A stretch of DNA of 64,000 nt from an uncultured Gemmatimonadota bacterium (GCA_951812955.1 OX638340.1:192001-256000), one strand, 5' to 3'. Shown: positions 17,759 through 56,841, numbered from the stretch's first letter. Notes: generated from the letters alone by a model not told the origin. Numbers and translations are program-made.

Positions 17759-17768
17759 ACGGAACGGG

Positions 17769-18098: not shown

Positions 18099-18107
18099 AA
18101 TCGGCCT

Positions 18108-19961
<1,854 letters not shown>

Positions 19962-19979
19962 TCGACGGGAGCCGGCGCC

Positions 19980-20768: not shown

Positions 20769-20793
20769 AACCGCACCTTCACCGGCGACTCCC

Positions 20794-21606: not shown

Positions 21607-21626
21607 AGGACAATTCGGACTGAATC

Positions 21627-22586: not shown

Positions 22587-22637
22587 TCGGATTCTGCGCG
22601 CGCTCGGATTCTGCACTTGCTCGGATTCTGCACGACA
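22587..22637 (+). repeat. Three contiguous 17-bp direct repeats (TCGGATTCTGC core) in GT2/GT9 intergenic region
   Basis: tcggattctgcgcgcgc / tcggattctgcacttgc / tcggattctgcacgaca back-to-back immediately upstream of the GT9 start at 22658. Confidence 0.9.
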
Positions 22638-22657
22638 AATGGATAAGTTTGACTACC

Positions 22658-23701: not shown

Positions 23702-23721
23702 TCACCCAACCGGAATAATCC

Positions 23722-34584: not shown

Positions 34585-34908
34585 ACTCTCCCCGGGTCTT
34601 TTGAGAAACAGGGCCGGATGCTGCCGGCAGGCCGGCGCGCCCTGAAATGAATCGTCCGGATTCGGCAAGACCCCATCGCATTTTAATCCACACAGGCTGA
34701 CAAAAAGGATTTCACGTTCGGGAGGAATCCTCCCGGGGGCGTCTTTGCGCGTGAACGGCGCCATATAGTGCCTGAACCGACGGTATTTCGTAGTATATGG
34801 TGTCAACACCTGATGTGTATCAACACACATATAGTCTTTTGCGCACGTAGGAGTTACGAAGATTCCCTTATCCAAAGGTAAAGAAAATCGATGTAAGTCC
34901 ATTTTTTA

Positions 34909-34937
34909 TTGACAATATGGGGGGTGCTATGTAGTAT
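34909..34937 (+). promoter_or_regulatory. Pmra-type promoter TTGACA-N17-TAGTAT for the dcw cluster
   Basis: Perfect -35 TTGACA 34909-34914, 17-nt spacer, TAGTAT 34932-34937, ~120 nt upstream of mraZ. Confidence 0.6.
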
Positions 34938-34938
34938 A

Positions 34939-34963
34939 GTGGGTAGAAGTGGGACGAAGTGGG
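34939..34963 (+). promoter_or_regulatory. Putative MraZ operator: three GTGGG direct repeats at 10-bp spacing
   Basis: GTGGG at 34939-34943, 34949-34953, 34959-34963 (GTGGG-N5-GTGGG-N5-GTGGG) immediately downstream of the -10, overlapping the expected transcription start. Confidence 0.6.
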
Positions 34964-35060
34964 TCCCAGAACATCCTGATTACCAAACACTTGTATAGTA
35001 ATCGTAAATAACTACCTCAGGACAGGGTGTTTACTCCTTTGTGTTACAGGGAGATCGTGA

Positions 35061-35501
35061 ATGGTTAACTTCCTGGGTTCATACACCTACACCGTGGACC
35101 ACAAAGGCCGGGTCAATGTCCCTGTGAAGTTTCGCAAGCACATCCGGACCGACGAGGACGACACGCTGATCATCACGCGGGGACTCGATGGATGTCTTTT
35201 CGTCTATCCAATCGACGAATGGGAACAGATCGACACCCGATTGCGAGAACTGCCCGTCACAAGGCAGAACACGCGGATCTTCATCAGGATGCTCTCGTCG
35301 GAGGCCGTGGCAGTCTCCATGGACAAGCAGGGTCGTATCGCCCTTCCCAGGCAGCTGATCGAACGCGCCGGCATTGAAACGGAAGTACTGATCATCGGAA
35401 CGCTTGACCACTTTGAACTCTGGAGTCCCGGGGAGTATGAGAAAGTAATGAACGAATCGGGACATACATACGAAGAGATCGCGGAGTCCCTGTTCGTTTG
35501 A
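35061..35501 (+). CDS. mraZ: Transcriptional regulator MraZ
   Basis: Two SpoVT/AbrB-like halves with DHKGRVNVP and DKQGRIALP motifs. Confidence 0.92.
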   Translation: MVNFLGSYTYTVDHKGRVNVPVKFRKHIRTDEDDTLIITRGLDGCLFVYPIDEWEQIDTRLRELPVTRQNTRIFIRMLSSEAVAVSMDKQGRIALPRQLIERAGIETEVLIIGTLDHFELWSPGEYEKVMNESGHTYEEIAESLFV

Positions 35502-36511
35502 TGCTTTCCACCCATGCGGCTCCGTTAAATCACGGAATGATCATGGGTCTGGCAGACAAGTACAATCATGTTCCCGTTCTTGCGGGGAAGGTAGCCGAGA
35601 TGCTCGTCTGGAACACTTCCGGCACATATGTAGACGGTACAATCGGCGGAGGCGGTCACGCGCGCGCCATACTGGAGCGGCTTGGCGAATCCGGACGGTT
35701 GATCGGGCTGGACAGGGATTCCGAAGCGGTCGGCGCGGCAGGTGCGCGGCTTGCGCGGGGAAGTACTCCTCGCGTGGAGATCCTGCAACGGGACTATACG
35801 GAGTTGGCGTCCGTGCTGGAAGCGAAACGCATCTCCCGGGTGGACGGACTGATTCTGGACCTTGGCATTTCGTCCTACCAGGTCGATACGCCTGATCGCG
35901 GATTTTCATTCCAGTCCGACGGTCCGCTCGACATGCGCATGGACCGGGGCAAGCCGTTGACCGCGGCTCATATCGTCAACGAAAGTTCCCGGGATGAACT
36001 CGAGCGGATCATACGGGAATACGGCGAGGAACGGCAGGCGCGCGGCGTCGCGAACGCGATCGTCAGAACCCGCGACAGGGCGCCGCTGACTTCCACCGCC
36101 AGGCTGGCTGATACGATCAGGTCCGCGGTCCGCCGCAGATGGGCGGTCAAGTCCTGCGCCCGGGTGTTCCAGGCACTAAGAATCGCCGTCAACCAGGAAC
36201 TGGACAAATTGAAATTGGTTTTGGATACCATGCTTCCCCTCCTGAGCAACCGGGGTCGTTTCGGTATCATATCCTATCATTCACTGGAAGATCGACTGGT
36301 CAAGCGGACATTCGAAACCTGGGCATCGGACTGCATTTGTCCGCCCGGCTTTCCACAGTGCGTCTGCCAGCACAGGCGCGTTGCCGTGCTACATACGAAA
36401 CGGGCCGTCGTGGCCTCCCGTGAAGAAGTCGCGAAAAACCCGCGGGCGCGAAGCGCCAGGTTCCGGATGATTGAACGTTTGCCCGACGATCAACACGCAC
36501 ACTGTAATTAA
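35498..36511 (+). CDS. rsmH: 16S rRNA (cytosine1402-N4)-methyltransferase RsmH/MraW
   Basis: HVPVL...DGTIGGGGHA, LILDLGISSYQVD; start may be at internal ATG 35534/35540. Confidence 0.9.
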   Translation: MMLSTHAAPLNHGMIMGLADKYNHVPVLAGKVAEMLVWNTSGTYVDGTIGGGGHARAILERLGESGRLIGLDRDSEAVGAAGARLARGSTPRVEILQRDYTELASVLEAKRISRVDGLILDLGISSYQVDTPDRGFSFQSDGPLDMRMDRGKPLTAAHIVNESSRDELERIIREYGEERQARGVANAIVRTRDRAPLTSTARLADTIRSAVRRRWAVKSCARVFQALRIAVNQELDKLKLVLDTMLPLLSNRGRFGIISYHSLEDRLVKRTFETWASDCICPPGFPQCVCQHRRVAVLHTKRAVVASREEVAKNPRARSARFRMIERLPDDQHAHCN

Positions 36512-36541
36512 CATCTTTAATTCAGAACGGAGAAGCCCGTC

Positions 36542-36964
36542 ATGAAATCCGCTATCAGATTCCGCAGCGACCACTCGTACATGGGACAATTGATCGGCTG
36601 GATCGGTACGATCGCGCTCGTAACGTCGCTGAGCATGGGTTACATCTGGCACCAGGTGGAAACCACGACGCTGATGCGGGAGATCATCGAACTGAAGGAT
36701 CAGAAAGAAGCCTTGAAAAAGGAAAGCGCCTATTTGCACGTGCGGATCGTTCGGCTCGCGGAACAGCTTCGGAACGAAACAGTGGCCATGAGTCGTTTCG
36801 ATTTGGAACACGCTGCAGTCGGACAGGTTGTGAACATGGATGCGGTAGACACGGCCATGGCTTTGGCCAACACCGAGCCCGATGTAAGGGCGATTGCGGG
36901 TAAGCCGGCGGATGACGCGTTGATCCTTGCCTCGTACCCTGCGGCTCACGTGGATACCCGATGA
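36542..36964 (+). CDS. ftsL: Cell division protein FtsL-like (single TM + coiled coil)
   Basis: Position between rsmH and ftsI; N-terminal TM then coiled-coil heptads (IIELKDQKEALKKESAYLHVRIVRL). Confidence 0.6.
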   Translation: MKSAIRFRSDHSYMGQLIGWIGTIALVTSLSMGYIWHQVETTTLMREIIELKDQKEALKKESAYLHVRIVRLAEQLRNETVAMSRFDLEHAAVGQVVNMDAVDTAMALANTEPDVRAIAGKPADDALILASYPAAHVDTR

Positions 36965-36976
36965 GGGAATACCGTT

Positions 36977-39040
36977 ATGGTCGCGAAATCCTGTATGCGC
37001 AGACTGACCCTCCTGGCCGTAGTCGGAGTGGTACTGTGTGCAGGTCTCGGGATTCGTATCGCGCTAATTCAGATTCGCGACGGCGAGGCCTACAGGCAGC
37101 GGGCGCGTGACCAACAGCACCGGGTGGTCACCATCGACCCCCGCCGGGGCCGTATCTTCGACCGCAACCGTAACACGCTGGCGCTGAGTGTCGAGTTCGA
37201 CTCCTTCGGTATCCAGGATCTCGACCGGGACCGGTACGGCCCCTCCGATATCGGAAACCTGGCCGTTCAGCTTTCCCAGATCACCGGCGAAGATCCCCAG
37301 CATATCATCGACCGGGTTTCCGAGACCTCCGACTTCAGGTATTTGGTCCGCTGGGTGAATCCCGAAACCAGTGAACGGATTAGAAGCCTCTCCACCTATC
37401 CCTTGTTCGAACCCTATATACGCACGCAAAAGGAAGCCAGGCGGGTCTATCCCTATCGGACCGCGGCCGGCCAGATACTGGGTTTCAGCGTAGATGGTTC
37501 CGGTCGGGCCGGGTTCGAAATGGAACACAACCAGCTGTTATCTGGTTTAGAAGGGTACAGCGTGGTGCAGATAGACGCTCAGCGACGGGCGTATTCGTGG
37601 CTTGATGCCTACCAGAATCCGGCGGAGAACGGCGCGGACGTCGTACTGACGATCGATATCGCTGCCCAGGTTGCCGCGGAAGAGGCGCTGGAGGAGGCGA
37701 TAGCGTGGCACGGGGCGCTCGGCGGTATGGTCATCATGATGGATCCGGCGAACGGCGACATACTGGCCATGGCCAGTTCTCCGGACTTCGATCCGAATAC
37801 ACCGGGACGGTTTCCATTCGAAGCCCAGAAGATCAGGCCGGTGGTGGATATCTACGAACCTGGGTCGACTTTCAAGATCGTAGCAGCGACCGCGGCCCTG
37901 GAGACCGGTGCGTTCTCTCTTGAGGACCGGATCGATACCAGTGCAGGCCGGATCGAGGTGGGCGCGCAGACGATATCAGACCACGAGGTCTACGACGAAC
38001 TGAGCGTACGGGAAGTCATCGAGCGGTCCAGCAACGTGGGTACCGTCAAAATCGCCCTGGCCCTCGGTGAAAAGGAGTTTTTCAAATACACCCGGGCCTT
38101 CGGTTTCGGCATGAAAACGGGCGTGGCCCTCCCGGGCGAGGCAAGAGGTATCCTGCATAAACCGGCCGTTTGGTCCATGTCCACGCTTCCCGCCATGGCC
38201 ATCGGCTACGGGGTTTCCGTCACCGGAGTACAACTCGCGACCGCCTATTGCGCCGTAGCCAACGGAGGCCTGCTCCTGCGACCTCGGATAATCAGATCCA
38301 TCCTGAGAAACGACGGTTCCGTGCAGACCGAACCGCGGTTTGTCGTTCGCAGGGTGATGAAAGAGGAGACCGCCGAAGCCTTACTGGGCGTATTCGCCGG
38401 AGTGGTGGACCAGGGTACGGGCACAAAGGCCGCGGTAACGGGTTTCAAGGTCGCGGGAAAGACCGGCACAGCCTGGAAGACCCGTGAGGACGGCAGGGGA
38501 TACACCAGGAATTACCGGTCGTCGTTTGCCGGGATGTTTCCGGCGAATGACCCGGAAATCGTCGTGCTCGTCATGATCGACGAGCCGAAGAAACGCGGCT
38601 TCTATGGCGGATCCGTGGCCGCGCCGGTTTTCAACAAAATCGTTCGCCGCCTCGTCCATCTGCCGGACGGACCCGTTGAGTCGGTTCCCGAATCCGATGA
38701 CGGCCTGCCCCTTCACCTGGCCTCCATCAAGCCTGGTTCGTCCTCGGGCAGCAGACCGCAGGGTTCTGCTACGGCATCGGGAGGACCGATGACTGGAGAC
38801 TTACTGCAGCTTGGCGGCCACTGGGAAATCGAACGTCCCGGTACCGGGGCGGAACAGGCACCGGTGCCGCTTCCGTCGGTGACAGGCATGAGCGTTAGAG
38901 AAGCCGTAAGGACCCTGGCCGAACAGGGTATTGAAGCAACCATAGTCGGTAAGGGCTACGTCCGACGCCAGATTCCTTCACCGGGCCGCATGGTCTATCC
39001 CGGCGATCGATGCCTCATCGAATGTGGTCCCTACAACTAG
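36977..39040 (+). CDS. ftsI: Peptidoglycan D,D-transpeptidase FtsI (class B PBP) with C-terminal PASTA-like domain
   Basis: SxxK GSTFKIV, SxN RSSN, KTG(T) AGKTGTA; C-terminal ~70 aa PVPLPSVTGMSVREAVRTLAEQGIEATIVGKGYVRRQ resembles PASTA. Confidence 0.88.
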   Translation: MVAKSCMRRLTLLAVVGVVLCAGLGIRIALIQIRDGEAYRQRARDQQHRVVTIDPRRGRIFDRNRNTLALSVEFDSFGIQDLDRDRYGPSDIGNLAVQLSQITGEDPQHIIDRVSETSDFRYLVRWVNPETSERIRSLSTYPLFEPYIRTQKEARRVYPYRTAAGQILGFSVDGSGRAGFEMEHNQLLSGLEGYSVVQIDAQRRAYSWLDAYQNPAENGADVVLTIDIAAQVAAEEALEEAIAWHGALGGMVIMMDPANGDILAMASSPDFDPNTPGRFPFEAQKIRPVVDIYEPGSTFKIVAATAALETGAFSLEDRIDTSAGRIEVGAQTISDHEVYDELSVREVIERSSNVGTVKIALALGEKEFFKYTRAFGFGMKTGVALPGEARGILHKPAVWSMSTLPAMAIGYGVSVTGVQLATAYCAVANGGLLLRPRIIRSILRNDGSVQTEPRFVVRRVMKEETAEALLGVFAGVVDQGTGTKAAVTGFKVAGKTGTAWKTREDGRGYTRNYRSSFAGMFPANDPEIVVLVMIDEPKKRGFYGGSVAAPVFNKIVRRLVHLPDGPVESVPESDDGLPLHLASIKPGSSSGSRPQGSATASGGPMTGDLLQLGGHWEIERPGTGAEQAPVPLPSVTGMSVREAVRTLAEQGIEATIVGKGYVRRQIPSPGRMVYPGDRCLIECGPYN

Positions 39041-39090
39041 CCGATTCATCGTTCATGAGGGTGAGGACGACGGCATAGAGGGTCAAGGCG

Positions 39091-40635
39091 TTGAAACAGC
39101 TTTCGAAATTGCTGGCCGCGTTACCTCAAAAAAAAGTCATCAGCCGGCTGAATGCCTCGAACCGGGCGGACCGGGCGGACCGGGCAGTCCAGGCGGACTA
39201 TGCGGACCATGCGGACCATGCGGACCAGGAGATTGGAACCATAGTCCATGACTCGAGGTCCGTAGAGCCAGGCGATGTTTTTGTCGCGCTCCGCGAGCCT
39301 TCGGGCCGCGACGGCCGCAGGTACGCCCGCGACGCGGTTGCACGGGGCGCTTCGGTAGTGGTACAGGAAAGCGAGGAGGGCCTGGATGACGCGATCGTGA
39401 TAAGCGTTCCGGACACTTCCAGGGCTCTGGGCTTGATGGCCGCGGCGTACTACGGTCAGCCGGCGACCGACCTTTGTCTGATCGGTATTACGGGGACCAA
39501 CGGAAAGACGACCGTGTCATTGCTGGTCGAGGCTATCCTTCGGGAATGTGGCTGGGCCGTGGGCGGGATCGGCACGCTGGGCAGCCGGTTCATGGGCAAT
39601 GTGCTCGACTGGAAACTGGGCCACACCACGCCCTATCCGATGGAGCTGCACGGCACCCTGAGGAAGATCCGGGACCGGGGAGGCGAATGCGTCGTCATGG
39701 AAGTATCCTCTCACAGCCTGGTCTGGCAACGCCTGTCCGGCCTGCGATTCACCACGGGCGTCTTTACGAATCTCTCCAGGGAACACCTGGACGACCACAA
39801 GACCTTCGACGCTTACAAGGAAGCGAAGATGGTGCTTTTCTCGAAATACCTCGAGGAGAAAGGCAACGCCGTCCTGAACATGGACGATCCGGCCTATGTC
39901 CATTTCAAGGACGCATCGCGCGCACAGGTGCGATCATACGGACTGGACAAGAAGGCTGACGTCCGCAGGGCGGGTCCAATAGGATACTATGCTGACCGGA
40001 CCGTCATGAAAGTGCAGATTCAATCCGGTCCCCCTTTCAACGTGACCTTGCCTCTCCTGGGTCGTTTCAACGCGTACAACGCCCTGGCAGCCATATCCGT
40101 GGGGCTGGGATTCGGCATCGACTGTGAACTGATGAGCCGGGCCATGTCACGAGTCAGGGTACCCGGCCGGCTTGAGCGCGTCGAGGCTGGACAGCCTTTC
40201 AACGTGCTCGTGGATTTCGCCCATACGCCCGACGCACTCGGCGCCGTACTGTCCGCCTGCCGGGAATGGACCCGTGGAAGCCTGACCGTCGTATTCGGTT
40301 GCGGCGGGGACCGTGATCCCGGCAAGCGGCCGCTGATGGCCCGTGCGGCGTCCACCCACGCCGACGTAGTCATCGTGACGACCGACAACCCGAGAACGGA
40401 ACCGCCCGACCGGATCATAAGAGATATCGAGCCGGGTCTCCTGCCCCACGTCCGGTCCCATATAGTCCAGGACCGCGGCGAAGCGATCCATAAGGCCCTC
40501 AGCGATGCCGGCGAAGGAGACACCGTGCTGATCGCCGGAAGAGGAGACACGGCCTACCAGATCGTTGGCGAATCGCAAATCGAGTTCGACGACCGGTTCA
40601 AGGCCAGGGAATGTCTCGAGGCGCACTATGGATAA
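39091..40635 (+). CDS. murE: UDP-MurNAc-L-Ala-D-Glu:meso-DAP ligase MurE (with ~25-aa repeat-rich N-terminal extension)
   Basis: GITGTNGKTT P-loop, DNPR and meso-DAP-type C-terminal motifs. Confidence 0.9.
   Translation: MKQLSKLLAALPQKKVISRLNASNRADRADRAVQADYADHADHADQEIGTIVHDSRSVEPGDVFVALREPSGRDGRRYARDAVARGASVVVQESEEGLDDAIVISVPDTSRALGLMAAAYYGQPATDLCLIGITGTNGKTTVSLLVEAILRECGWAVGGIGTLGSRFMGNVLDWKLGHTTPYPMELHGTLRKIRDRGGECVVMEVSSHSLVWQRLSGLRFTTGVFTNLSREHLDDHKTFDAYKEAKMVLFSKYLEEKGNAVLNMDDPAYVHFKDASRAQVRSYGLDKKADVRRAGPIGYYADRTVMKVQIQSGPPFNVTLPLLGRFNAYNALAAISVGLGFGIDCELMSRAMSRVRVPGRLERVEAGQPFNVLVDFAHTPDALGAVLSACREWTRGSLTVVFGCGGDRDPGKRPLMARAASTHADVVIVTTDNPRTEPPDRIIRDIEPGLLPHVRSHIVQDRGEAIHKALSDAGEGDTVLIAGRGDTAYQIVGESQIEFDDRFKARECLEAHYG
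39160..39227 (+). repeat. In-frame 9-nt tandem repeats in murE 5' region (ccgggcgga x3-like then gcggac(c/t)at x4) encoding RADRADRAVQADYADHADHAD
   Basis: aaccgggcggaccgggcggaccgggcag...gcggactatgcggaccatgcggaccatgcggaccag; preceded by an A8 homopolymer at 39129-39136. Confidence 0.85.
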
Positions 40636-42049
40636 CCGCAATGGGTCGGCGGCGCCCACGTTGCTGGAAATAGCCGATATCATGGGCGGGAGACTGCATG
40701 TATCCATCCCCGCGCTTGGTCACAGACGGATCACGGGCGTTTGTTCCGATACGCGGCGTATCGCGGAGGGCAACCTGTTCGTCGCGATTGCAGGTGAACG
40801 GTACGACGGTCACGATTTCGTGCCTGAAGCCATGCGCTCGGGAGCGTGTGCGTCGCTGGTTGCGGCCGATTGGCTCGCGGGTCGGCCGGACCGGGAGACT
40901 CCGGATGACGCGCGGATCGTCGTGCCGGAAGTACTTCCGGCCCTGCAGGCATTCGCCGGTTGGCACCGAAGACGATTCGATCTGCCGGTAATCGCGGTTA
41001 CGGGTTCCAGCGGGAAGACCACCACGAAGAACATGATGGCCGCCGTGCTGGGAGAGCGCTACAGGGTTTTCAAAACACCGGGGAACCTGAATAGCCAGCT
41101 GGGAGTCTCCGAATCGCTGTTCTCGCTGCACGAAGGCCACGGCGCGGCGGTACTTGAACTGGGTATGAACCGGGCAGGTGAACTGACCCGGCTGTCCCGA
41201 ATGACCTGTCCATCCGTTGGCGTGATTACCAATGTGGGGCCCGCGCATATCGAGTTTTTCGAATCGATCGAAGGAATCGCCCGGGCCAAGGGCGAAATTC
41301 TCGACAATCTGCCAGGGGCGGGAAGCGCGGTGCTAAACGCCGACGACCCCCTCGTCATGAAGCAGGCCGTTCGCAGTCCGGCGCGAGTCGTTACGTTTGG
41401 ACGCAGCGAGGGAGCCGACGTAAGGCTGGCAAGCGCAACGACCGCACTGACCGGATCGACTTTCGCCTTGTCGGATGGCGCATCCTTTCGAATAAACCTG
41501 TTGGGGGAACACCAGGTCATGAATGCAATGGCCGCCGTGGCGGTGGGCAGGATTTCGGGAATCGACGACCAGGACATCGCTCGCGCGTTGCGAAACTTGG
41601 ATCCCACGCCCATGCGCATGGAATACAGGAAGGTGGGCGCCGTGCACCTGATCGACGACACATACAATGCCAATCCGTCGTCGATGAAGGCGGCCCTGGA
41701 CACGCTGGCGACTGCCGGAGGCCGTAAACTGGTCGTCCTCGGGGATATGCTGGAACTGGGCGAACTGGGCATGGCGGCGCACAGGGAAATCGGAAAACGC
41801 GCCGCGGATGTGGCGGAACGGATCGTCACGGTGGGAGAACTGGCCCGCGAAATCGCCGGAGCCGCGATGCATGCGGGGATGCCGGCGTCGCGCGTCTCGT
41901 CCTGCCTTTCCAACGACGAGGCGGTCGCTGAGGTAATGGCGGGAATCGAAGCCGTCGACGTCATACTCGTCAAGGGATCGCGCGGCATGCGGATGGAAAC
42001 GATCGTTGAATCCCTGGAACTAGCACTGGGCCATACCGAAACGGAGTGA
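40628..42049 (+). CDS. murF: UDP-MurNAc-tripeptide:D-Ala-D-Ala ligase MurF
   Basis: GSSGKTTTK P-loop; ATG 40628 overlaps murE stop; Mur ligase middle/C domains. Confidence 0.9.
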   Translation: MDNRNGSAAPTLLEIADIMGGRLHVSIPALGHRRITGVCSDTRRIAEGNLFVAIAGERYDGHDFVPEAMRSGACASLVAADWLAGRPDRETPDDARIVVPEVLPALQAFAGWHRRRFDLPVIAVTGSSGKTTTKNMMAAVLGERYRVFKTPGNLNSQLGVSESLFSLHEGHGAAVLELGMNRAGELTRLSRMTCPSVGVITNVGPAHIEFFESIEGIARAKGEILDNLPGAGSAVLNADDPLVMKQAVRSPARVVTFGRSEGADVRLASATTALTGSTFALSDGASFRINLLGEHQVMNAMAAVAVGRISGIDDQDIARALRNLDPTPMRMEYRKVGAVHLIDDTYNANPSSMKAALDTLATAGGRKLVVLGDMLELGELGMAAHREIGKRAADVAERIVTVGELAREIAGAAMHAGMPASRVSSCLSNDEAVAEVMAGIEAVDVILVKGSRGMRMETIVESLELALGHTETE

Positions 42050-42053
42050 TTCC

Positions 42054-43196
42054 GTGTTACATCAGCGAATCGATCTTCCACTGCTGGTTTCATCCCTGCT
42101 CCTCCTGGGCGTGGGATCGGTCATGATTTACAGCGCGAGTTCAGCCGTTGCCGAAGAGATGTTTTCCGGCGACAGTGGTTTCTTCGTCAAACGCTACCTG
42201 GTCAGGTTGATTCTCGGAATCGTCATCCTGGTCCTGTTCGCCAGCCTGAATTACCAGAAACTCGGGAAGTGGTCCCCATTACTGGTTGCCGTCGGCATGG
42301 TGTTTCTCGTGCTCCTCTTTGTTCCCGGTATCGGCCTGACCATCCGGGGCGCGACCCGCACCTTGAGCATGTTCTCCACGACGATTCAGCCCGCGGAAGG
42401 GATCAAGGTCGCCCTGGTCATATACCTGGCCTACTGGCTGGACAGGCGCCAGAACGTCATGGACCGTTTCTTCATCGGATTTCTGCCCGGAATAGCGGTG
42501 GTCGCGGCAGCCTGCCTGCTGATTGTCCTGCAGCCGGATTATGGTACCGCGATCGTGCTTGCCGCAACCTCGTTCGCGATGCTCTACATCGGCCGCGCGC
42601 GGATGCTGCACCTGGCAAGCACCGTGGGAATCATGTTGCCGGTCCTTTTCTACAGACTGTATTCGTCGGCTCACAGCCGGCAGCGTCTCATGGCTTATTT
42701 CGATCGGCTTTTCGGCAATTCCGTCGATCAGTCCGTCAATCTGCAAGGTGCGGACTACCAACTGCAACAAGCGCTGATCAGTCTGGGTACAGGCGGCGTA
42801 TTTGGAAACGGTCTGGGACAAAGCCGTCAGAAGTTTCTGTTCCTTCCCGATCCCCACACTGACTTCGTGTTCGCGGTGATTGGCGAAGAACTCGGTTTTC
42901 TGGGGTCGATGGCGGTGCTGGGCCTCTTTGTCGTATTCGCCTGGAGGGGTTTCAGGGTCGCCCGCATGGCACCTGACACCTTCGGGTTTTTCCTGGCGTC
43001 CGGGCTTACTATTCTTATCACACTGCACGTGCTGGTGAACATCGGTGTGGTGACGGGCATGCTCCCCACCACGGGGCTTCCGCTACCCTTCCTGAGCTAT
43101 GGCGGGTCCTGGCTGCTTTTCTGCATGATGAGCATCGGGATACTGCTGAACATTTCCAGAATGACATACCGGTGCCAGAGACTGAAATATGACTGA
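42054..43196 (+). CDS. ftsW: SEDS-family peptidoglycan glycosyltransferase FtsW
   Basis: LPDPHTDFVFAVIGEELGF, LPLPFLSYGGSWLL SEDS motifs; directly follows murF (no mraY/murD between). Confidence 0.85.
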   Translation: MLHQRIDLPLLVSSLLLLGVGSVMIYSASSAVAEEMFSGDSGFFVKRYLVRLILGIVILVLFASLNYQKLGKWSPLLVAVGMVFLVLLFVPGIGLTIRGATRTLSMFSTTIQPAEGIKVALVIYLAYWLDRRQNVMDRFFIGFLPGIAVVAAACLLIVLQPDYGTAIVLAATSFAMLYIGRARMLHLASTVGIMLPVLFYRLYSSAHSRQRLMAYFDRLFGNSVDQSVNLQGADYQLQQALISLGTGGVFGNGLGQSRQKFLFLPDPHTDFVFAVIGEELGFLGSMAVLGLFVVFAWRGFRVARMAPDTFGFFLASGLTILITLHVLVNIGVVTGMLPTTGLPLPFLSYGGSWLLFCMMSIGILLNISRMTYRCQRLKYD

Positions 43197-44607
43197 TCGG
43201 CAAAATACGGACATTGCATGCCGTCACGCGCATTTCATCGGCATAGGCGGAATCGGAATGAGCGGTCTGGCTGAACTGATGCTCGAATTTGGTTACGAAG
43301 TGAGCGGATCGGACCTGCGGCGAACACAGCTGACGGACCGGCTCAGCGGTCTCGGAGCGTCCGTCTTCCACAGCCACGACCCGGGCAACGCGGCGGGTGC
43401 GGACCTGATCGTGTACTCTTCCGCAATTCCGGAGGACAATCCCGAACTCGAAGCGGCCCGTAGGCATGGCGTACGTTTGGTCCGCCGCGCCGAACTGCTC
43501 GGTATACTGATGCGCGGGGCACGAAGTATCGCCGTGGCGGGCGCTCACGGCAAGACGTCCACGTCGGCGATGATCGTAAACGTACTGGCCGCCGCGGGCC
43601 TGGATCCGACCGCCGCCATAGGCGGGATCATGACGGAGAACGGATCCAACGTCCGGCACGGCAGCGGATCGTGGATGGTCGCGGAAGCCGATGAATATGA
43701 TCGTTCGTTCCATGCGCTGGCTCCGACTACGGCAGTAATCACATCGGTGGACGCAGACCACCTGGAATACTACGGATCGCAGGAAGCCATAGATGCAGCC
43801 TTCACTACTTTCGCCCATCTCGTACCCGAGGACAGGCCGTTGTTCGTGTGTGCCGACGACCCGGGCATCCGCAGGATCAGTCCCGCGCTGCGCCGACGGC
43901 TGGTGACCTACGGCCTTTCCGGTCACGCCTGCATCCGGGCAGACCGGGTGGCGACCGAAGGCTGGAGCATTTCCGCCGAAGTATTCGTGCGGGACGTTCC
44001 GGCCGGCCGGCTGGTTTTGCCTCAGCCCGGCGAGTGCAACCTGGTCAATGCCCTGGCGGCCATCAGTGTGGCCGACTACCTCGAAATACCCGTCGAGCGG
44101 ACCCTGGCGGCCCTGGCGGATTACCGGGGACTGAGGAGACGTTTCGAAGTACTCGGAAGGATTCAAGGTGTGGAGGTAGTGGACGACTATGCCCACCATC
44201 CCGTCGAAATCGAGGCGGCGTTGCTCGCCCTGTCAAACGCGGGAGCCCGGCGCATGTTCGTCATATTCCAACCCCACCTCTTCAGCCGAACGCAGCATCT
44301 GTGCCGCGAATTCGGGCGCGTACTCGGGCGGTTTCCCGCATATCGGAAGATCGTTACGGACGTGTACCCCTCCAGGGAAACGCCGCGGGAGGGGGTTACG
44401 GGTGAGTTGATCGTCAGGGCGTCGAGCGCATTCGGAGGAGGCGTCGCGTACATGCCGGACAAGAACCGCATCGCGACCACCCTGGTGGACGATCTCGAGA
44501 AAGGGGACATGGTGCTGACGCTCGGCGCGGGGGACATCGACGAAGTAGGACGGCAGGTTTGCGAACTACTTAGGAAACGCGGGGTCAGGTCCCATGCATG
44601 TATATGA
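43189..44607 (+). CDS. murC: UDP-N-acetylmuramate:L-alanine ligase MurC
   Basis: HFIGIGGIGMSGLAE N-terminal Rossmann, GAHGKTSTSAM P-loop; directly follows ftsW (no murG between). Confidence 0.9.
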   Translation: MTDRQNTDIACRHAHFIGIGGIGMSGLAELMLEFGYEVSGSDLRRTQLTDRLSGLGASVFHSHDPGNAAGADLIVYSSAIPEDNPELEAARRHGVRLVRRAELLGILMRGARSIAVAGAHGKTSTSAMIVNVLAAAGLDPTAAIGGIMTENGSNVRHGSGSWMVAEADEYDRSFHALAPTTAVITSVDADHLEYYGSQEAIDAAFTTFAHLVPEDRPLFVCADDPGIRRISPALRRRLVTYGLSGHACIRADRVATEGWSISAEVFVRDVPAGRLVLPQPGECNLVNALAAISVADYLEIPVERTLAALADYRGLRRRFEVLGRIQGVEVVDDYAHHPVEIEAALLALSNAGARRMFVIFQPHLFSRTQHLCREFGRVLGRFPAYRKIVTDVYPSRETPREGVTGELIVRASSAFGGGVAYMPDKNRIATTLVDDLEKGDMVLTLGAGDIDEVGRQVCELLRKRGVRSHACI

Positions 44608-45520
44608 AATGCTCAGTGGGTCGATCGCTTCCGAACGGCTGCGGTGCGACGAGGGCCTTGATCGGCATTCTACTTACCGGGTCGGAGGGCCGGCGGACGT
44701 GATGTGCCTGCCTCGAACCCGATCGGAACTGCTGGATGTCGTCACCGCTGCAAGCGTGCGCGGGATACCCTGGCTGGTGGTGGGAAACGGGAGCAATATC
44801 CTCTTCTCGGATGACGGATTCCGCGGTCTGGTGATCAAGATAAGAGGCGCGGTCCCGGTGGAGGGGACGCTGTGGCAATTGGCGCAGGAAGGTGATTTCA
44901 TCCGGGCGGGCGCGGGCGTCAGCCTGCCTCGACTCGCCAGGTCGGCGGCGGCCGCGGGACTGAGCGGACTGGAGTTCTGCACCGGGATACCCGGCGTGGT
45001 TGGCGGATCCATCCGGGGCAACGCCGGCGCTCACGGGAGTGATCTGGGCGCTGTAGTGGAGTCTGTGGAAATGATTCGGCCATCCGGTGACATCGTGACG
45101 ATCAGGGCTTCGGAGGCCGGGTTTTCCTATCGGGAAAGTGAAATTGAGCCGGACAGCATCGTGACCGGGGCGGTGTTCAGGCTGACGCCGGATGAACCGG
45201 AGAACGTGCAAGAACGCATAAGGGTCTTCACCGAATACAGAAAGCGCACGCAGCCGTCCTCCGATCAGAGTGCCGGGTGCATGTTTAAAAACCCGGTGGG
45301 CGACAGTGCCGGAAGGCTGATCGACGCGGCCGGGTGCAAAGGACTTCAGGTCGGCGGATCGAGGGTGTCCGAAATCCACGGTAATTTCGTAATCAACCTG
45401 GGTGGTGCAACGGCGTCGGACGCGTTGCGGTTGATCGACCTGGTTCGCGAACGGGTCTTCGAGCGAACCGGCGTAGCCCTCGAACTCGAGGTGCGCGTGA
45501 TGAAATCGGGCGTGGTATGA
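44594..45520 (+). CDS. murB: UDP-N-acetylenolpyruvoylglucosamine reductase MurB
   Basis: FAD-binding VGGPADV...LVVGNGSNILFSD, C-terminal MurB domain GNFVINLGGATASD. Confidence 0.88.
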   Translation: MHVYEMLSGSIASERLRCDEGLDRHSTYRVGGPADVMCLPRTRSELLDVVTAASVRGIPWLVVGNGSNILFSDDGFRGLVIKIRGAVPVEGTLWQLAQEGDFIRAGAGVSLPRLARSAAAAGLSGLEFCTGIPGVVGGSIRGNAGAHGSDLGAVVESVEMIRPSGDIVTIRASEAGFSYRESEIEPDSIVTGAVFRLTPDEPENVQERIRVFTEYRKRTQPSSDQSAGCMFKNPVGDSAGRLIDAAGCKGLQVGGSRVSEIHGNFVINLGGATASDALRLIDLVRERVFERTGVALELEVRVMKSGVV

Positions 45521-46359
45521 ATTCGAACAGGATGCGTTTCACATTCCGTTTGATGACCGGACTTGCGATTGTCCTGCTCGCCTCAGGTACGACGGCCGGA
45601 CTGGTCATGGGAGGCCTGGCGCTGTCCAGGTGGACTGAGAACTCGCCGGTTTTCAATCTGGACGCCATCGTCGTCGAGGGGAACAGGATCGCTGGCAAGG
45701 AGGACATCATCCGGGTTTCCGGCCTCGAAATGGGCAAGAACATCTGGTCGGCCGACCTCGAGGAGACCGGACGGCGACTCATGCTCGACACGCGGTTCGA
45801 TCGGGTCGCGCTGAGCAGGAGGTTACCCGGTACCGTCGTCGTTCGGGTGAAGGAACTGCAGCCCATCGCCATTGTACAGCTGGATCGCCTCTACGGAGTC
45901 TCCGAACGCGCCGAGCTGATCCCGCTTTCACCGGGAAACGGGTTGCCGGACCTTCCCGTGATTACCATCGACGCTTCAGGTTTCCGGCCGGAGTCAGGCG
46001 CCGCGGAATCGCGGGACCTTCATTTCGAAACGCTCAGGGAAGCCATGCTGGTCGATCCCGAGATGGGCCGCGCCCTCTACCTCATGCGGGTGCTCAGAGC
46101 GATGTCTCCGGGGATGTACGACGAGTTATCCGAGATTCACATGTCCAGACCGAATGACCCGATCGCCTACATGGTGGAAGGCGGATTGGCCATACGGTTC
46201 GGAACGGGACACTACCCCCGGAAGATCGAGATGCTCAGACGAACTGTGGAGCGGTTGGAAGCCGACGCCATCAGGACCCGGTTGATCGATCTGAGGTTCA
46301 AGGACCAGGTTATCGTCCGCCCGGTTGTATCCAGCCGGTCCCTGGACAGGCGTTCGTAG
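45517..46359 (+). CDS. ftsQ: Cell division protein FtsQ/DivIB (POTRA domain)
   Basis: N-terminal TM, POTRA segment IVVEGNRIAGKEDIIRVSGLEMGKNIW; ATGA overlap with murB; no ddl between murB and ftsQ. Confidence 0.8.
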   Translation: MNSNRMRFTFRLMTGLAIVLLASGTTAGLVMGGLALSRWTENSPVFNLDAIVVEGNRIAGKEDIIRVSGLEMGKNIWSADLEETGRRLMLDTRFDRVALSRRLPGTVVVRVKELQPIAIVQLDRLYGVSERAELIPLSPGNGLPDLPVITIDASGFRPESGAAESRDLHFETLREAMLVDPEMGRALYLMRVLRAMSPGMYDELSEIHMSRPNDPIAYMVEGGLAIRFGTGHYPRKIEMLRRTVERLEADAIRTRLIDLRFKDQVIVRPVVSSRSLDRRS

Positions 46360-46377
46360 CGGTAAAAGGAGTTTCGC

Positions 46378-47598
46378 ATGGCCCGTGAATGTATAGCTGC
46401 ACTCGACCTGGGCACGACCAAAACGGTCGTGTTGATCGGCGAGATGACTGACGCCGGCCTCCGGATCCTGGGCGAGGGTACGTGCCGGTCCCAGGGCCTC
46501 CGGCGAGGCGTCCCGGTCAATATGGACGAAGCTGCCCGTTCGATCGCGGAGACGATTCAGGTCGCGGAACAGGCGGCCGAAGCCAGGATAAGCGAGGTCT
46601 ATGTCGGGTGTTCCGGCGATCACATCGAAAGTGTCAACAGCAGAGGCGTCGTGGCCATTTCGTCCGACGGGGGACGGGGCGTGACGCGTAAGGACGTTGC
46701 TCGCGCCTTCGATTCCGCGACGGCCCTGAGGATTCCCATGGACCGCCAGGTCATCCATGTGCTCGCACAGGACTATATCGTGGACGACCAGTGCGGTATC
46801 CGCGACCCGTGCGGCATGTCCGGCGTCCGGCTTGAAGTGCTGGTGCACATCGTGACCGGGGCGATCACCTCGTTGCGGAATGTACGCAATTGCATCATGC
46901 AGTCCGGAATTCAAGTCCGGGAAATCGTCCTCGATTCGCTCGCCGCGAGCCAGGCGGTGCTCACATCCGACGAAAAAGAGCTGGGTGTCGTTCTCCTCGA
47001 CCTCGGCGGGGGCACCACGAACATCGCGCTGTTCCAAGACGGCAGCATCCGGCATTCGTCGGTTATTCCCGCCGGAGGAATCAACCTTACGAACGATATC
47101 GCGATCGGTCTCCGCACCCCGCATGAAGATGCCGAACGAATAAAGCGGCACTACGCGAGCGCGGTATATGTCCGCTCGGAAAGGGACAACATGATTGAAG
47201 TACCCGGGGTCGGCGGACGCGAGTCGCGTATGGTGACGCGGGAGGAATTGGCGTTCGTGGTCGGCCCACGGATCAAGGAGCTTCTGGTCCTCGCTCGGGA
47301 GACGATCAGGAACAGTGGATTCGAACACCTGGTCCGCACCGGTATCGTTATCACAGGGGGCGGTGCGCTGATGCCGGGTATTGCGAAACTGACGGAACAG
47401 GTCTTCGGCATGTCCGCGAAAATCGGTGCGCCGGAGGAAGTTCACGGCCTGGCCGATGATGGGAACGCCCCCCTGTACGCAACCGGTGTAGGCTTGTTGC
47501 GCCACGCAGCGGACAGCTCGTCAGGAAAAAAGTGGCACCATGATACGGAAGGAGGATGGCTGGATCGTGTGAGAAGCCGGATCGTAGCCATGTTGTAG
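46378..47598 (+). CDS. ftsA: Cell division protein FtsA
   Basis: Actin-fold motifs IAALDLGTTK, VLLDLGGGTTNIALF; position before ftsZ. Confidence 0.9.
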   Translation: MARECIAALDLGTTKTVVLIGEMTDAGLRILGEGTCRSQGLRRGVPVNMDEAARSIAETIQVAEQAAEARISEVYVGCSGDHIESVNSRGVVAISSDGGRGVTRKDVARAFDSATALRIPMDRQVIHVLAQDYIVDDQCGIRDPCGMSGVRLEVLVHIVTGAITSLRNVRNCIMQSGIQVREIVLDSLAASQAVLTSDEKELGVVLLDLGGGTTNIALFQDGSIRHSSVIPAGGINLTNDIAIGLRTPHEDAERIKRHYASAVYVRSERDNMIEVPGVGGRESRMVTREELAFVVGPRIKELLVLARETIRNSGFEHLVRTGIVITGGGALMPGIAKLTEQVFGMSAKIGAPEEVHGLADDGNAPLYATGVGLLRHAADSSSGKKWHHDTEGGWLDRVRSRIVAML

Positions 47599-47666
47599 CA
47601 CACACCATGCGCTATCGTACGGATTCGGCGGTTTGCTAACTCAAACCCCACAGAAGGAGGCAGGAA

Positions 47667-48839
47667 ATGTCTACTTTCGACTTTGATGCGGAACCGGGAT
47701 TGTTTGCCCGCATGAAAATAATCGGCGTAGGCGGCGCAGGAAAGAACGCCGTCAACCACATGGTTGAAATCGGCGTCCCGGGCGTTGATTTTCTAGTCGC
47801 CAACACCGACGCGCAGGACCTGGCGGGTTCCAATGTGAAGTACAAGATACAGCTGGGACAGGAAACTACCCGTGGACTCGGCGCCGGCGCTAATCCCGAC
47901 GTGGGCCGCAAAGCCGCGGAGGAAAGCCGGGACGAAATCGCGGAACACCTGACCGACATCGACATGGTGTTCATCACGGCGGGTATGGGGGGAGGCACGG
48001 GAAGCGGCGCCGCGCCGGTGATTGCCCAGATTGCGAAGGAACTGGGTGTGCTGGCCGTCGGCGTCGTGACCAAGCCGTTCGCGTTCGAGGGACCCAAGCG
48101 TGCGGCGAACGCCGAGACCGGGCTCTCAGCTTTGAAGGAACATGTAGATACGGTGGTCATCATACCAAACCAGAAACTGAAGGAGGCCGTGAGCCGCAAC
48201 ACCACATTCAAAGACGCGCTCAAGGTGGCCGACGAAGTCCTGTTGCAGGCCACGCGCGGCATTTCGGACCTGGTTACACTGCCCGGATTGATCAATGTCG
48301 ATTTCGCCGATATCAGGACGACCATGGAGAACAAGGGCGAAGCCCTGATGGGAACCGGCGAAGCCGATGGCGACAAGCGTGCGCTGGAAGCGGCGGAACG
48401 GGCCATGCGGCACCCGTTGCTGGCGGACATGGACATCGACGGGGCCAAGGATATTCTGCTCAATATATCGGGCGGCCAGGACATGACCCTGTTCGAAGTG
48501 GAAGAGGTGATGACCACGGTTCAGGCGGCCGCGGGACATACCAACATCATCATGGGTACGGTCCTCGACGAAAGCCTCGACGGCAAGGTCCGCGTAACGG
48601 TGATCGCCACGGGGCTGGACCAGTCGATGGCTGCCCCTGACGATATGTTGACGCGTAACATCCTGAAGTTTCAGCCGGACCGCCCTAACGAACTGGAAAC
48701 GCCGGCCTTTCAGCGTGTCAAGCGCAACGGGTTCGATACGGAAGAAGTGACCGTCGGCGACCCTTCTGACGACGCGGTCGACAACAACGGGCTGGACGTG
48801 CCGACCTACATGCGTCGCAGGCGGGCTTTCGGTTCGTAG
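47667..48839 (+). CDS. ftsZ: Cell division GTPase FtsZ
   Basis: Tubulin signature GGGTGSGAAPV, IGVGGAGKNAV; GAAGGAGG RBS. Confidence 0.95.
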   Translation: MSTFDFDAEPGLFARMKIIGVGGAGKNAVNHMVEIGVPGVDFLVANTDAQDLAGSNVKYKIQLGQETTRGLGAGANPDVGRKAAEESRDEIAEHLTDIDMVFITAGMGGGTGSGAAPVIAQIAKELGVLAVGVVTKPFAFEGPKRAANAETGLSALKEHVDTVVIIPNQKLKEAVSRNTTFKDALKVADEVLLQATRGISDLVTLPGLINVDFADIRTTMENKGEALMGTGEADGDKRALEAAERAMRHPLLADMDIDGAKDILLNISGGQDMTLFEVEEVMTTVQAAAGHTNIIMGTVLDESLDGKVRVTVIATGLDQSMAAPDDMLTRNILKFQPDRPNELETPAFQRVKRNGFDTEEVTVGDPSDDAVDNNGLDVPTYMRRRRAFGS

Positions 48840-48902: not shown

Positions 48903-48931
48903 TTGACAGACCCGCGTCGGCGCGGTATTTT
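48903..48931 (+). promoter_or_regulatory. Candidate promoter TTGACA-N17-TATTTT for valS
   Basis: TTGACA 48903-48908, 17-nt spacer, TATTTT 48926-48931 in the ftsZ/valS gap. Confidence 0.5.
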
Positions 48932-52633: not shown

Positions 52634-53668
52634 ATGCGTTTTATCCTGCCGGACTTCTTTTCTAATGATATCGGCATCGATCTGGGTACGGCCAATACGC
52701 TCGTATATGTCCGTGGCAGAGGCATTGTGATCAACGAGCCATCCGTGGTGGCCGTCAATACCAAGTCCGGGAAAGTCGTCGCCGTCGGTGCCGAGGCTAA
52801 AGTCATGCTCGGAAGGGAGCCGCCCGATCTCAAGGCGCACCGGCCGTTGCGCGATGGCGTGATTGCCGACTTCGAGTATACGGAAGCGATGATTCGATAC
52901 TTCATCCGCAAGGTCCTCAAGAATTCATTCTTCATTCGGCCACGCGTCGTGGCATGTATTCCCTCGGGAGTGACCGACGTTGAAATGAGGGCGGTCCGGG
53001 ATTCGGCGGAGCGAGCGGGCGCCAAGGAAGTGATGTTGATATCCGAGCCCATGGCGGCCGCTATCGGTTGTTCGTTGCCCGTGGATGAACCGGTGGGCAG
53101 CATGATCATCGATATCGGCGGCGGGACGTCGGAGATCGCCGTGATCTCCCTTGGCGGCATCGTGACGGCAAAGTCGGTACGCATCGGCGGCGATGAAATG
53201 GACGAGGCAATCATCAACCACATGAAGAACGACTGCAACCTTCAGATCGGCTACAATATGGCCGAACAGATCAAGTGGAATCTCGGGTCGGCCTATCCGG
53301 TGTTCGACAAGGAACTGGATATGACGGTAAAGGGGCTCGATCTGATCGACAGGATACCACGTTCTGTAGTTGTCGATTCCCTGGCGATTCGCAGGGTACT
53401 TTCCCAGCCGCTCGACGGGGTGATCATGGCAGTGCGGCAAACCCTGGAATTGACACCGGCGGAACTGGCGGCCGATATTATCGATCGCGGTATCATCATA
53501 AGCGGAGGCGGGTCCCGGCTGCCCGGCCTGGACAGGCAGATCACGAAGGAGACCAAGCTGCCGGTAAGGCTCGATGAGGAGCCTATGACGTCCGTTGTTC
53601 GGGGAGCGGGAAAGATCATAGAGAACTTTGCCGCTTACGAGACTATGCTGAGCGTCCTGAAGGACTAG
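52634..53668 (+). CDS. mreB: Rod shape-determining protein MreB
   Basis: IGIDLGTANTLVYV, IIDIGGGTSEIAVIS actin-like motifs. Confidence 0.95.
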   Translation: MRFILPDFFSNDIGIDLGTANTLVYVRGRGIVINEPSVVAVNTKSGKVVAVGAEAKVMLGREPPDLKAHRPLRDGVIADFEYTEAMIRYFIRKVLKNSFFIRPRVVACIPSGVTDVEMRAVRDSAERAGAKEVMLISEPMAAAIGCSLPVDEPVGSMIIDIGGGTSEIAVISLGGIVTAKSVRIGGDEMDEAIINHMKNDCNLQIGYNMAEQIKWNLGSAYPVFDKELDMTVKGLDLIDRIPRSVVVDSLAIRRVLSQPLDGVIMAVRQTLELTPAELAADIIDRGIIISGGGSRLPGLDRQITKETKLPVRLDEEPMTSVVRGAGKIIENFAAYETMLSVLKD

Positions 53669-53669
53669 C

Positions 53670-54485
53670 ATGTTCCGGTTCTTTTACGTTCTGTATCACC
53701 AACGCCAGTACACAGCTTTCGCGCTCGCCATGGTCATCTCGATCCTGCTTCTGACGGCGTCCCCGCAGCGGCAGATCGGTGTCATGCGGATCGTCTGGTT
53801 GACTGTGCTGACGCCTTTTCAGGAAGCGTTCGCCTTCATTCCGTCGTATTTCAACCTCAAATCCGAAAACCAGCTGCTGCGACAGAAACTCGTCCAGATG
53901 CAATTGCAGACCGCCGATCTCGAGGAACGAAGATTTGAAAACCAGCGGCTGCGCGGGCTCCTCAGTCTGAAGGACAGAAAGAAGTATACCTATGTGCCCG
54001 CCGAAGTCGTCGGCTGGAATACCGATCAGAGGCTGAACACCATTATCATCGATGTCGGTCGTTTCGATCAGATCCGCAAGTACATGGCCGTAGTGATGGA
54101 AGACGGTGTCCTGGGTAGAATCATCGAAGTCGGCCTGACTTCGTCCTACGTGCAATTGCTTTCCGACAGAAACTGCCGTATCAGCGGCCTGGTCCAGCGA
54201 AGCCGGGAACAGGGAATCATCCGCTACCAGAATGAAGCGTTGTATATGCAGTTGCCATTACGGGCAGACGTCCGTCTAGGCGACCGCGTGGTGACATCCG
54301 GCCTGGGGGAGACCTTTCCTTCGGGATTGCCCGTTGGCAGTATAAGCCGGATCGCACTCGGAAGCCGGAACCTTTTCAAGCAGGTAACGATCACTCCCGC
54401 GGTGGAACTGAATCGTCTGGAGGAGGTGTTTGTGATCGCGGGTGAAGAAACACCTGCCGCGGCCGATTCGCTCCAGGTCGAGTAA
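53670..54485 (+). CDS. mreC: Rod shape-determining protein MreC
   Basis: N-terminal TM, coiled coil (NQLLRQKLVQMQLQTADLEERRFENQRL), beta-rich C-terminal domain; position. Confidence 0.8.
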   Translation: MFRFFYVLYHQRQYTAFALAMVISILLLTASPQRQIGVMRIVWLTVLTPFQEAFAFIPSYFNLKSENQLLRQKLVQMQLQTADLEERRFENQRLRGLLSLKDRKKYTYVPAEVVGWNTDQRLNTIIIDVGRFDQIRKYMAVVMEDGVLGRIIEVGLTSSYVQLLSDRNCRISGLVQRSREQGIIRYQNEALYMQLPLRADVRLGDRVVTSGLGETFPSGLPVGSISRIALGSRNLFKQVTITPAVELNRLEEVFVIAGEETPAAADSLQVE

Positions 54486-54526
54486 TCTCGGGTTCGACGA
54501 GCCGGTTTTTATGATCCAGCTATTCC

Positions 54527-55027
54527 ATGCACTTAAAACACGCTATCCTACTGTTCCTGGCATTTGTAATCGACAGTACCTGGGGACACGAAATCGCCAT
54601 ACGGACTATCAGGCCGGATTTCGTACTGATGATCCTGATCTTTGGCGCGATGGGATCGGGCGCCTTCTGGGGGACCATCCTGGGCTTCAGCGTAGGGCTC
54701 ATGGAGGATTTCAACAGCACGCCTGTGAACCTGGGACTCAATGCCATGTGCAATACGCTGATCGCATACGGCGTGGGAATTGCCGGAAAAACGCTCTACA
54801 GGGACAGTCTCTCTACCCTGCTGCTCACGCTGCTTGCCGCCAGCCTGGTCCACGCCGTCATTTACTGGCTGGTATTCACCCGGTTCCAACTGGCTGAATC
54901 TGTATTCATGCTGGCAACGGTCTCATTGCCCACGATGCTTTACACCGTCTCCGTAGCCCTGTTGCTCGTGCTCGGATTGACCTATCGACAGGGACAGATC
55001 AATGTCCGGTGGCTTTTCCCAGAATGA
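54527..55027 (+). CDS. mreD: Rod shape-determining protein MreD
   Basis: 166-aa polytopic membrane protein following mreC. Confidence 0.7.
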   Translation: MHLKHAILLFLAFVIDSTWGHEIAIRTIRPDFVLMILIFGAMGSGAFWGTILGFSVGLMEDFNSTPVNLGLNAMCNTLIAYGVGIAGKTLYRDSLSTLLLTLLAASLVHAVIYWLVFTRFQLAESVFMLATVSLPTMLYTVSVALLLVLGLTYRQGQINVRWLFPE

Positions 55028-56822: not shown

Positions 56823-56841
56823 GAAATACGCCTGAAATCCC

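Follow-up and report, generated by a model that had tools for sequence, protein, structure and literature searches.

A reduced division and cell wall gene cluster without mraY, murD, murG and ddl in an uncultured Gemmatimonadota bacterium and its relatives

The gene order of the cluster of division and cell wall (dcw) genes is among the most conserved in bacteria. In its canonical Escherichia coli-type form the cluster reads mraZ–rsmH–ftsL–ftsI–murE–murF–mraY–murD–ftsW–murG–murC–ddlB–ftsQ–ftsA–ftsZ, and in Firmicutes murC, murF and ddl are located outside of it. The history of the cluster has been chiefly one of gene loss or delocalization, with missing members that mark whole phyla: the FBC (Fibrobacteres, Bacteroidetes, Chlorobi) superphylum has ddlB and murB outside the cluster, sub-clusters occur in Chloroflexi and Planctomycetes, the genes are fully dispersed in Cyanobacteria, and mraY was grouped with the genes kept in the cluster and regarded as the best phylogenetic marker (PMC8871954). 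The order of the genes was argued to reflect assembly of a Mur complex and balanced stoichiometry (PMC10214165). Here we describe the dcw cluster in a 64,000-nucleotide stretch of DNA (called the window below) from an uncultured Gemmatimonadota bacterium (GCA_951812955.1 OX638340.1:192001-256000), in which mraY, murD, murG and ddl were not found.

Through open reading frame (ORF) listing and family scans, twelve genes were identified on the plus strand in the order mraZ–rsmH–ftsL-like–ftsI–murE–murF–ftsW–murC–murB–ftsQ–ftsA–ftsZ, the same order as had been given by a reading of the sequence alone (hereafter the sequence-only reading; Table 1). Compared with the canonical cluster (E. coli type, and loci L025, L027, L036 and L040 of our sample), order and orientation are the same for all twelve retained genes, with mraZ–rsmH at the 5′ end behind a promoter and a GTGGG operator, ftsQ–ftsA–ftsZ at the 3′ end, and tight or overlapping spacing. 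The window differs from it in lacking mraY, murD, murG and ddl, and from the E. coli cluster also in containing murB. The phenomenon is the same as in the known dcw reductions, in which essential wall genes leave the conserved cluster but stay in the genome; unlike them, the clade of the window sheds mraY, murD and murG and keeps murC and murB, which are often outside the cluster elsewhere. In the literature on PAUC34f, SAUL (sponge-associated unclassified lineage) and Latescibacteria, we found no statement on dcw gene order or peptidoglycan genes, and this combination of genes appears to be undescribed, a modest variant of the known dcw dispersal.

Considering the evidence given below, the locus is very probably a genuine, vertically inherited and reduced dcw operon of a deep clade of metagenome-assembled genomes (MAGs), with the missing genes encoded elsewhere. 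It may be proposed that mraY and murD were cleanly removed between murF and ftsW and murG between ftsW and murC, and that, before these departures, the wider Fibrobacteres-Chlorobi-Bacteroidetes (FCB) group already had its ddl elsewhere than in the cluster.

Table 1. Features of the dcw locus and its surroundings, with positions counted from the first nucleotide of the window
Feature	Position	Strand	Evidence or remark
Promoter-like TTGACA-17 nt-TAGTAT (Pmra-like), upstream of mraZ	34909..34937	+	Consensus scan, conserved in clade
Three direct GTGGG repeats, 10-nt period, GTGGGTAGAAGTGGGACGAAGTGGG, putative MraZ operator	34939..34963	+	Directly after promoter
mraZ	35061..35501	+	TIGR00242 136 bits (cut-off 98); PF02381
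rsmH (mraW)	35498..36511	+	TIGR00006 316 bits (cut-off 154)
ftsL-like	36542..36964	+	140-aa ORF; assigned by position and topology only
ftsI (class B penicillin-binding protein)	36977..39040	+	PF00905, PF03717, PF03793 (Transpeptidase, PBP_dimer, PASTA)
murE (meso-diaminopimelate type)	39091..40635	+	NF001126 477 bits (cut-off 373)
murF	40628..42049	+	TIGR01143 407 bits (cut-off 289)
murF/ftsW junction	42050..42053	+	4 nt at canonical mraY and murD site
ftsW (SEDS)	42054..43196	+	TIGR02614 346.9 bits (cut-off 337.5); PF01098
ftsW/murC overlap	43189..43196	+	8 nt at canonical murG site
murC	43189..44607	+	TIGR01082 442 bits (cut-off 335)
murB	44594..45520	+	NF010480 324 bits (cut-off 259)
ftsQ	45517..46359	+	PF08478 POTRA_1; weak match to FtsQ model NF004039
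ftsA	46378..47598	+	PF14450, PF02491 (FtsA, SHS2_FTSA)
ftsZ	47667..48839	+	PF00091, PF12327 (Tubulin, FtsZ_C)
Terminator-like hairpin after ftsZ, weak	48912..48925	+	Consensus scan only, not above shuffled expectation
mreB-mreC-mreD-pbp2-rodA elongasome cluster	52634..58059	+	PF06723, PF04085, PF04093, PF00905+PF03717, PF01098

That the missing genes cannot be hidden in this locus, as the sequence-only reading stated, agrees with three kinds of searches over the 64 kb. Pfam scans of the window ORFs (those called at about 100 aa and above, minus a few short or doubtful ones) revealed no PF00953 (MraY), no GT28 (glycosyltransferase family 28) and no Ddl domain. Using tblastn with MraY, MurD and MurG of relatives, only the paralogous ligases MurE, MurF and MurC were matched in the window; neither there nor in the 24 clade loci was a MurD homologue or remnant seen at the canonical site. 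Hidden Markov models (HMMs) built from 120 MraY and 120 MurG sequences were run against six-frame translations with all filters off, and gave no match at E<1 in the window or in all 24 related loci; therefore no pseudogene remnants of MraY or MurG are present there. Antisense or overlapping ORFs as hidden copies of mraY, murD or murG were ruled out by the tblastn and six-frame HMM scans. The same reading had counted three lipid-linked-step genes among those missing, which is incorrect, since mraY and murG are two membrane-step genes.

The junctions at which the genes would have been removed are closed (Table 1), and the short murF/ftsW spacer, the ftsW/murC overlap and the murB/ftsQ overlap were read correctly from the sequence. 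In addition, the murE stop is overlapped by 8 nt by the murF ATG at 40628, murC and murB overlap by 14 nt, and murB and ftsQ by 4 nt. The junction sequences are proper stop/start arrangements. The further description of the cluster as having only 4-bp or overlapping junctions holds for the key junctions but not for the others, which measure 12–68 nt. The overlaps murE/murF, ftsW/murC, murC/murB and murB/ftsQ suggest translational coupling. The start of murF is most likely the ATG at 40628, the longest-ORF alternative being a TTG at 40565; gene callers gave a murF of 473 aa with the same start in 8 other assemblies of the species. The start codon of rsmH is uncertain, as nearby alternative starts were picked by gene callers in other assemblies. 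No Pfam or NCBIfam match was obtained for the ftsL-like ORF; its translation contains one transmembrane helix and, after it, a coiled-coil segment, and it has the same position in all clade loci.

Scanning species-representative genomes with the FtsW protein, we obtained 47 loci, of which L001–L024 come from 24 different species with FtsW identities to the window from 97% down to 62%. Their record titles name Latescibacterota, Gemmatimonadetes or only 'bacterium'; most are sponge or other marine metagenome genomes, and many of them are from sponges or corals. Clade loci spanning both ends have the arrangement proC–mraZ–rsmH–ftsL–ftsI–murE–murF–ftsW–murC–murB–ftsQ–(ftsA)–ftsZ–valS, and shorter loci agree over their extent. 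In the clade the murF/ftsW spacer measures 3–19 nt in 23 species, L020 with its frameshifted murF being the one of the 24 left out. Of the 23 clade loci extending as far as murC, 14 have the 8-nt ftsW/murC overlap; in the remaining ones the two genes overlap by up to 17 nt or are separated by up to 178 nt. Several clade genomes are closed chromosomes of 3.5–3.96 Mb, and both long-read and short-read assemblies, made independently, are represented. The closed chromosomes of the clade include OY762445.1, OZ241920.1, OZ245326.1, OZ220749.1, OZ252103.1, OZ241838.1, OZ253560.1 and OY843748.1. Exact look-ups of the window FtsW and FtsZ matched no record. By a look-up of the window MraZ, 21 contigs from this species were retrieved (ENA, NCBI and Logan), and the gene order was the same in all 8 that were listed.

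Variation within the clade was also observed. In L018 (13465-15601) and L019 (13462-15704), ftsQ is directly followed by ftsZ and ftsA is not between them; the ftsA query matched there only distant MreB-like sequences about 5 kb off. Within the clade, it thus seems that still other genes depart from the dcw cluster or are lost. The ftsZ match of L018 is split, possibly by a frameshift. The guanine-plus-cytosine content within the clade spans about 20 percentage points (41% in L019 and L151, 48–51% in L022 and L023, and 60% in L001 and the window), and the sponge-associated members are at the high end.

Outside the clade, the canonical order murF–mraY–murD–ftsW–murG–murC was found in Eisenbacteria (L025, L026, L031, L037), Marinimicrobia (L027, L028, L039), a Nitrospinae MAG (L036) and Krumholzibacteriia-type loci (L040, L041); in the two loci scanned, L025 and L027, MraY, MurD and MurG were above the cut-off (TIGR00445, TIGR01087 and TIGR01133). 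Three Latescibacterota loci (L029, L030, L043) have the order murF–ftsW–murG–murC. Like the window they are without mraY, murD and ddl and have the other genes in the same order; unlike the window they keep murG (TIGR01133, 297–311 bits), and their FtsW is 41–44% identical to that of the window. The murF–ftsW adjacency is also present in L038, as far as its contig reaches. In the FCB relatives keeping murB, this gene is directly followed by ftsQ; the others are also without murB, and none of them has room for ddl.

The absence of ddl is thus ancestral in the wider FCB group, in agreement with what was published for the FBC superphylum (PMC8871954). The absence of four genes reported by the sequence-only reading stands in that all four are missing, but ddl is not part of the same event, being outside the cluster in all sampled FCB relatives. 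When the nearest relatives are compared, as that reading proposed, the absence of mraY–murD is common to L029, L030 and L043, and the absence of murG is specific to the clade of the window within this sample. Its view of the uncoupling as unusual is right for mraY. As a rough background, we took the unrelated clusters from the metagenome operator-pattern scan described below that extend past murE or murF, and mraY came next after one of these two genes in all 21, two of them with one intervening ORF. The departure of genes from the dcw cluster as such was already known.

Other arrangements were noted among the sampled loci. L032 and L034 read ftsI–murF–mraY–ftsW–murG–ftsQ, without murE, murD, murC and murB in the cluster, and L068 and L071 read murF–mraY–ftsW–murG, without murD. 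In two low-GC metagenome contigs (L056, 1863-2774; L158, 557-1468), an ORF 51% identical to FtsZ is located between murF and mraY, where an ftsZ-like gene is unusual. A 'closed' Latescibacterota MAG (L048, CP070631.1, 9575-15021) contains mraY–murD–ftsW–murG between a 141-aa C-terminal fragment of MurF and a 60-aa fragment of MurC; lying amid other short genes, this locus looks like a chimeric or stitched assembly.

The retained wall genes appear to be functional. The ratio of nonsynonymous to synonymous substitution rates (dN/dS), calculated against three relatives at increasing distance, was 0.07–0.29 for ftsI, murE, murF, ftsW, murC, murB, ftsA and ftsZ. The SxxK, SxN and KTG motifs are intact in both class B penicillin-binding proteins (PBPs), FtsI and PBP2, and in FtsI they are STFK297, SSN351 and KTG495. 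The statement of the sequence-only reading that the organism clearly makes peptidoglycan is in line with the low dN/dS and the intact catalytic motifs. MurE contains a DNPR motif at residue 432, which we take to be the signature of the meso-diaminopimelate (meso-DAP) type, and we infer that the lineage still makes meso-DAP peptidoglycan. MurE needs the product of MurD as its substrate, and lipid II needs MraY and MurG; if the products of the latter two were missing, the synthases formed by SEDS (shape, elongation, division, sporulation) proteins and class B PBPs would be without substrate. Because the retained wall genes are under purifying selection with their motifs kept, because a full MreBCD–PBP2–RodA set is present, and following this pathway logic, mraY, murD, murG and ddl should in all likelihood lie elsewhere in the chromosome of about 3.8 Mb.

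Several other explanations of the locus were weighed. An assembly artefact, through which mraY–murD and murG were deleted or collapsed at murF/ftsW and ftsW/murC, is vanishingly improbable: no evidence for it was found, the adjacency is the same in 24 species assembled by different groups and technologies, closed chromosomes included, and in 8 further assemblies of the window species, and the junction sequences are proper stop/start arrangements. The concern about misassembly at these two junctions, raised with the sequence-only reading, is excluded by the identical junctions. It is also most improbable that the SEDS gene at 42054-43196 encodes something other than FtsW, or that one of the three ligases is really MurD, which would make the cluster less reduced than it seems. 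The FtsW score is only narrowly over the equivalog cut-off (346.9 vs 337.5 bits) and that for SpoVE reaches 327 (cut-off 448.8), but the RodA score is lower (274, cut-off 336.7), and the gene is orthologous by position to the ftsW of every outgroup cluster. FtsW is encoded together with ftsI in the division cluster, apart from rodA, pbp2 and mreBCD at 52.6–58.1 kb. Since a separate rodA (56842-58059) is present in this elongasome cluster, next to the second class B PBP (55002-56822), ftsW is not rodA; the domains found there also bear out the two class B PBPs and two SEDS proteins that had been claimed. Each of the three ligases scores above the cut-off of its own equivalog or subfamily model, and their MurD scores of 91–108 bits are far under the cut-off of 212 bits. 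Both a misidentified FtsW and a hidden MurD among the ligases were ruled out by these NCBIfam scores, and the identity of the product as FtsW was upheld.

Other explanations concern the fate of the missing genes. In the case of true loss, no canonical MraY, MurD or MurG would exist anywhere, and non-orthologous enzymes would make lipid II or a different envelope polymer; the clade would then work with unrecognised enzymes while keeping MurC, MurE, MurF, MurB and both SEDS–PBP pairs, which we regard as very unlikely. MurC, MurE, MurF, MurB, FtsW, FtsI, RodA and PBP2 are each intact and subject to purifying selection, MurE and MurF would be without substrate if there were no MurD, as would the SEDS–PBP pairs if there were no lipid II, and Pfam scans found no replacement candidate (PF00953 or GT28-like) in or near the cluster. 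True loss would fit the absence of clade orthologues among the best 120 MraY or MurG matches, and an alternative MurG-like synthase has been reported in actinomycetes (PMC8092295), but those searches were too shallow for a lineage only about 40–55% identical to the queries. A second possibility, a variant of relocation in which the native genes did not move, is xenologous displacement, in which foreign mraY–murD and murG were acquired elsewhere in the genome by horizontal transfer and the native copies in the cluster were then deleted. The clean and remnant-free excisions are as expected when redundant copies are deleted, and, judging from the matches listed, the clade orthologues are not close to the MraY of Eisenbacteria or the MurG of Latescibacterota, which would agree with deep divergence as well as with a foreign origin. 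Every retained dcw protein, however, is equally distant from all relatives (about 40–46%), so no transfer is needed to explain why no close MraY or MurG was found, and we think displacement rather unlikely, although it deserves some consideration. Clean, remnant-free junctions fit both transposition and xenologous displacement.

Some observations weigh against a vertically inherited, reduced operon whose missing genes are encoded elsewhere. No clade MraY was among the best 120 of at least 8000 matches to an Eisenbacteria MraY query, where identity had a plateau of 63–67% among the matches listed. Likewise, no clade MurG was among the best 120 of at least 8000 matches to a profile of three Latescibacterota MurGs, the matches listed comprising about 12 close relatives followed by a plateau of 44–60%. 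These negatives are weak, because the clade is about equidistant (about 40–46% identity for the Mur ligases) from every query and its orthologues would rank far below the matches listed. The metagenome scan with GTGGGTANNANTGGGNNNANGTGGG gave no isolated mraY or murG among the matches listed. Translational coupling and single-operon transcription we infer from spacing only. In a bootstrapped neighbour-joining tree of nine dcw proteins, the clade was monophyletic with 100% support, but its join to the murG-retaining Latescibacterota had 8%, so the two are not supported as sisters and a single shared mraY–murD event is not established. Four candidate clade MraYs (P0084, P0034, P0089 and P0074), chosen because of a Latescibacterota label, the length of their contigs or the large number of their NCBI members, were rejected, all being in canonical clusters of other lineages.

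For the order of events, both courses are possible: either mraY–murD left first, in an event shared with the three Latescibacterota, and murG later, or the departures were independent. From the record titles, with their sponge and coral MAGs, and from the literature, the clade is probably the PAUC34f/SAUL lineage. In the 16S rRNA literature, sponge-associated PAUC34f is the sister of Latescibacteria (PMC7081726), and this would favour a single mraY–murD event.

Upstream of mraZ, the promoter-like block TTGACA-17-TAGTAT is common to all 13 clade genomes aligned. The total of the promoter scan was no better than the shuffled expectation, and the support comes from conservation and position. The GTGGG repeat pattern occurs a single time in the window, where chance would give 0.1 matches, and is conserved across the clade; considering its likeness to the TGGGN repeats of E. 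coli Pmra, we take it to be a putative MraZ box. A second invariant block, CAAACACTTGTA, was observed after the operator (window 34905-34995). A metagenome scan with a stricter form of the operator pattern, GTGGGTANNANTGGGNNNANGTGGG, matched at least 120 contigs, and the matches listed were mraZ-upstream sites of many phyla and one clade relative (L151). Of the 120 contigs listed, 71 have a mraZ homologue on the same stretch, adjoining the pattern in those checked.

From mraZ to ftsZ the cluster may be transcribed as a single unit under MraZ control, its overlapping genes being coupled in translation, and the relocated mraY, murD, murG and ddl would then be expressed outside the Pmra/MraZ unit. 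The distinct regulation of the membrane steps put forward by the sequence-only reading is a hypothesis, and we might only speculate about it.

Beyond the dcw cluster, Pfam scans of the window revealed nuoF–N, a glycan/LPS (lipopolysaccharide)-type cluster, RNase G, L21, prfA, prmC, proC, valS, the mre genes, lgt, pfk and tpiA. The division and elongation clusters (window 35061-58925, the latter being mreB–mreC–mreD–pbp2–rodA–lgt) are about 3.8 kb apart, with valS and a short unassigned stretch between them, and the adjacency of the dcw cluster and valS is kept in the clade loci that reach past ftsZ. The glycan/LPS-core-like cluster (10044-24762) comprises a polyprenyl synthase, two GT2 and one GT4 glycosyltransferases, a radical SAM/SPASM protein, a MsbA-like ABC exporter and three GT9 heptosyltransferases; in its stretches of about 20.1–20.5 kb and 21.8–22.3 kb there are only oddly composed ORFs. 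The divisome FtsI has a PASTA domain at its C-terminus (residues 631-677). In other respects the organism looks diderm, having Lgt, a SurA-like chaperone and three GT9 heptosyltransferases. FtsI with a PASTA domain also occurs in the unrelated canonical clusters L049 and L050.

With MreBCD, RodA and PBP2 present, the lineage appears to be of the rod type. Models of wall synthesis would be unchanged by the reduced cluster unless the missing genes are truly absent. If the departure of mraY–murD was a single event, it may serve as a rearrangement marker for the relationships of Latescibacterota. Twelve genes that stay tightly packed, with exactly MurD and the enzymes for lipid I and lipid II removed, offer a small natural test of the ideas on the Mur complex and its stoichiometry.

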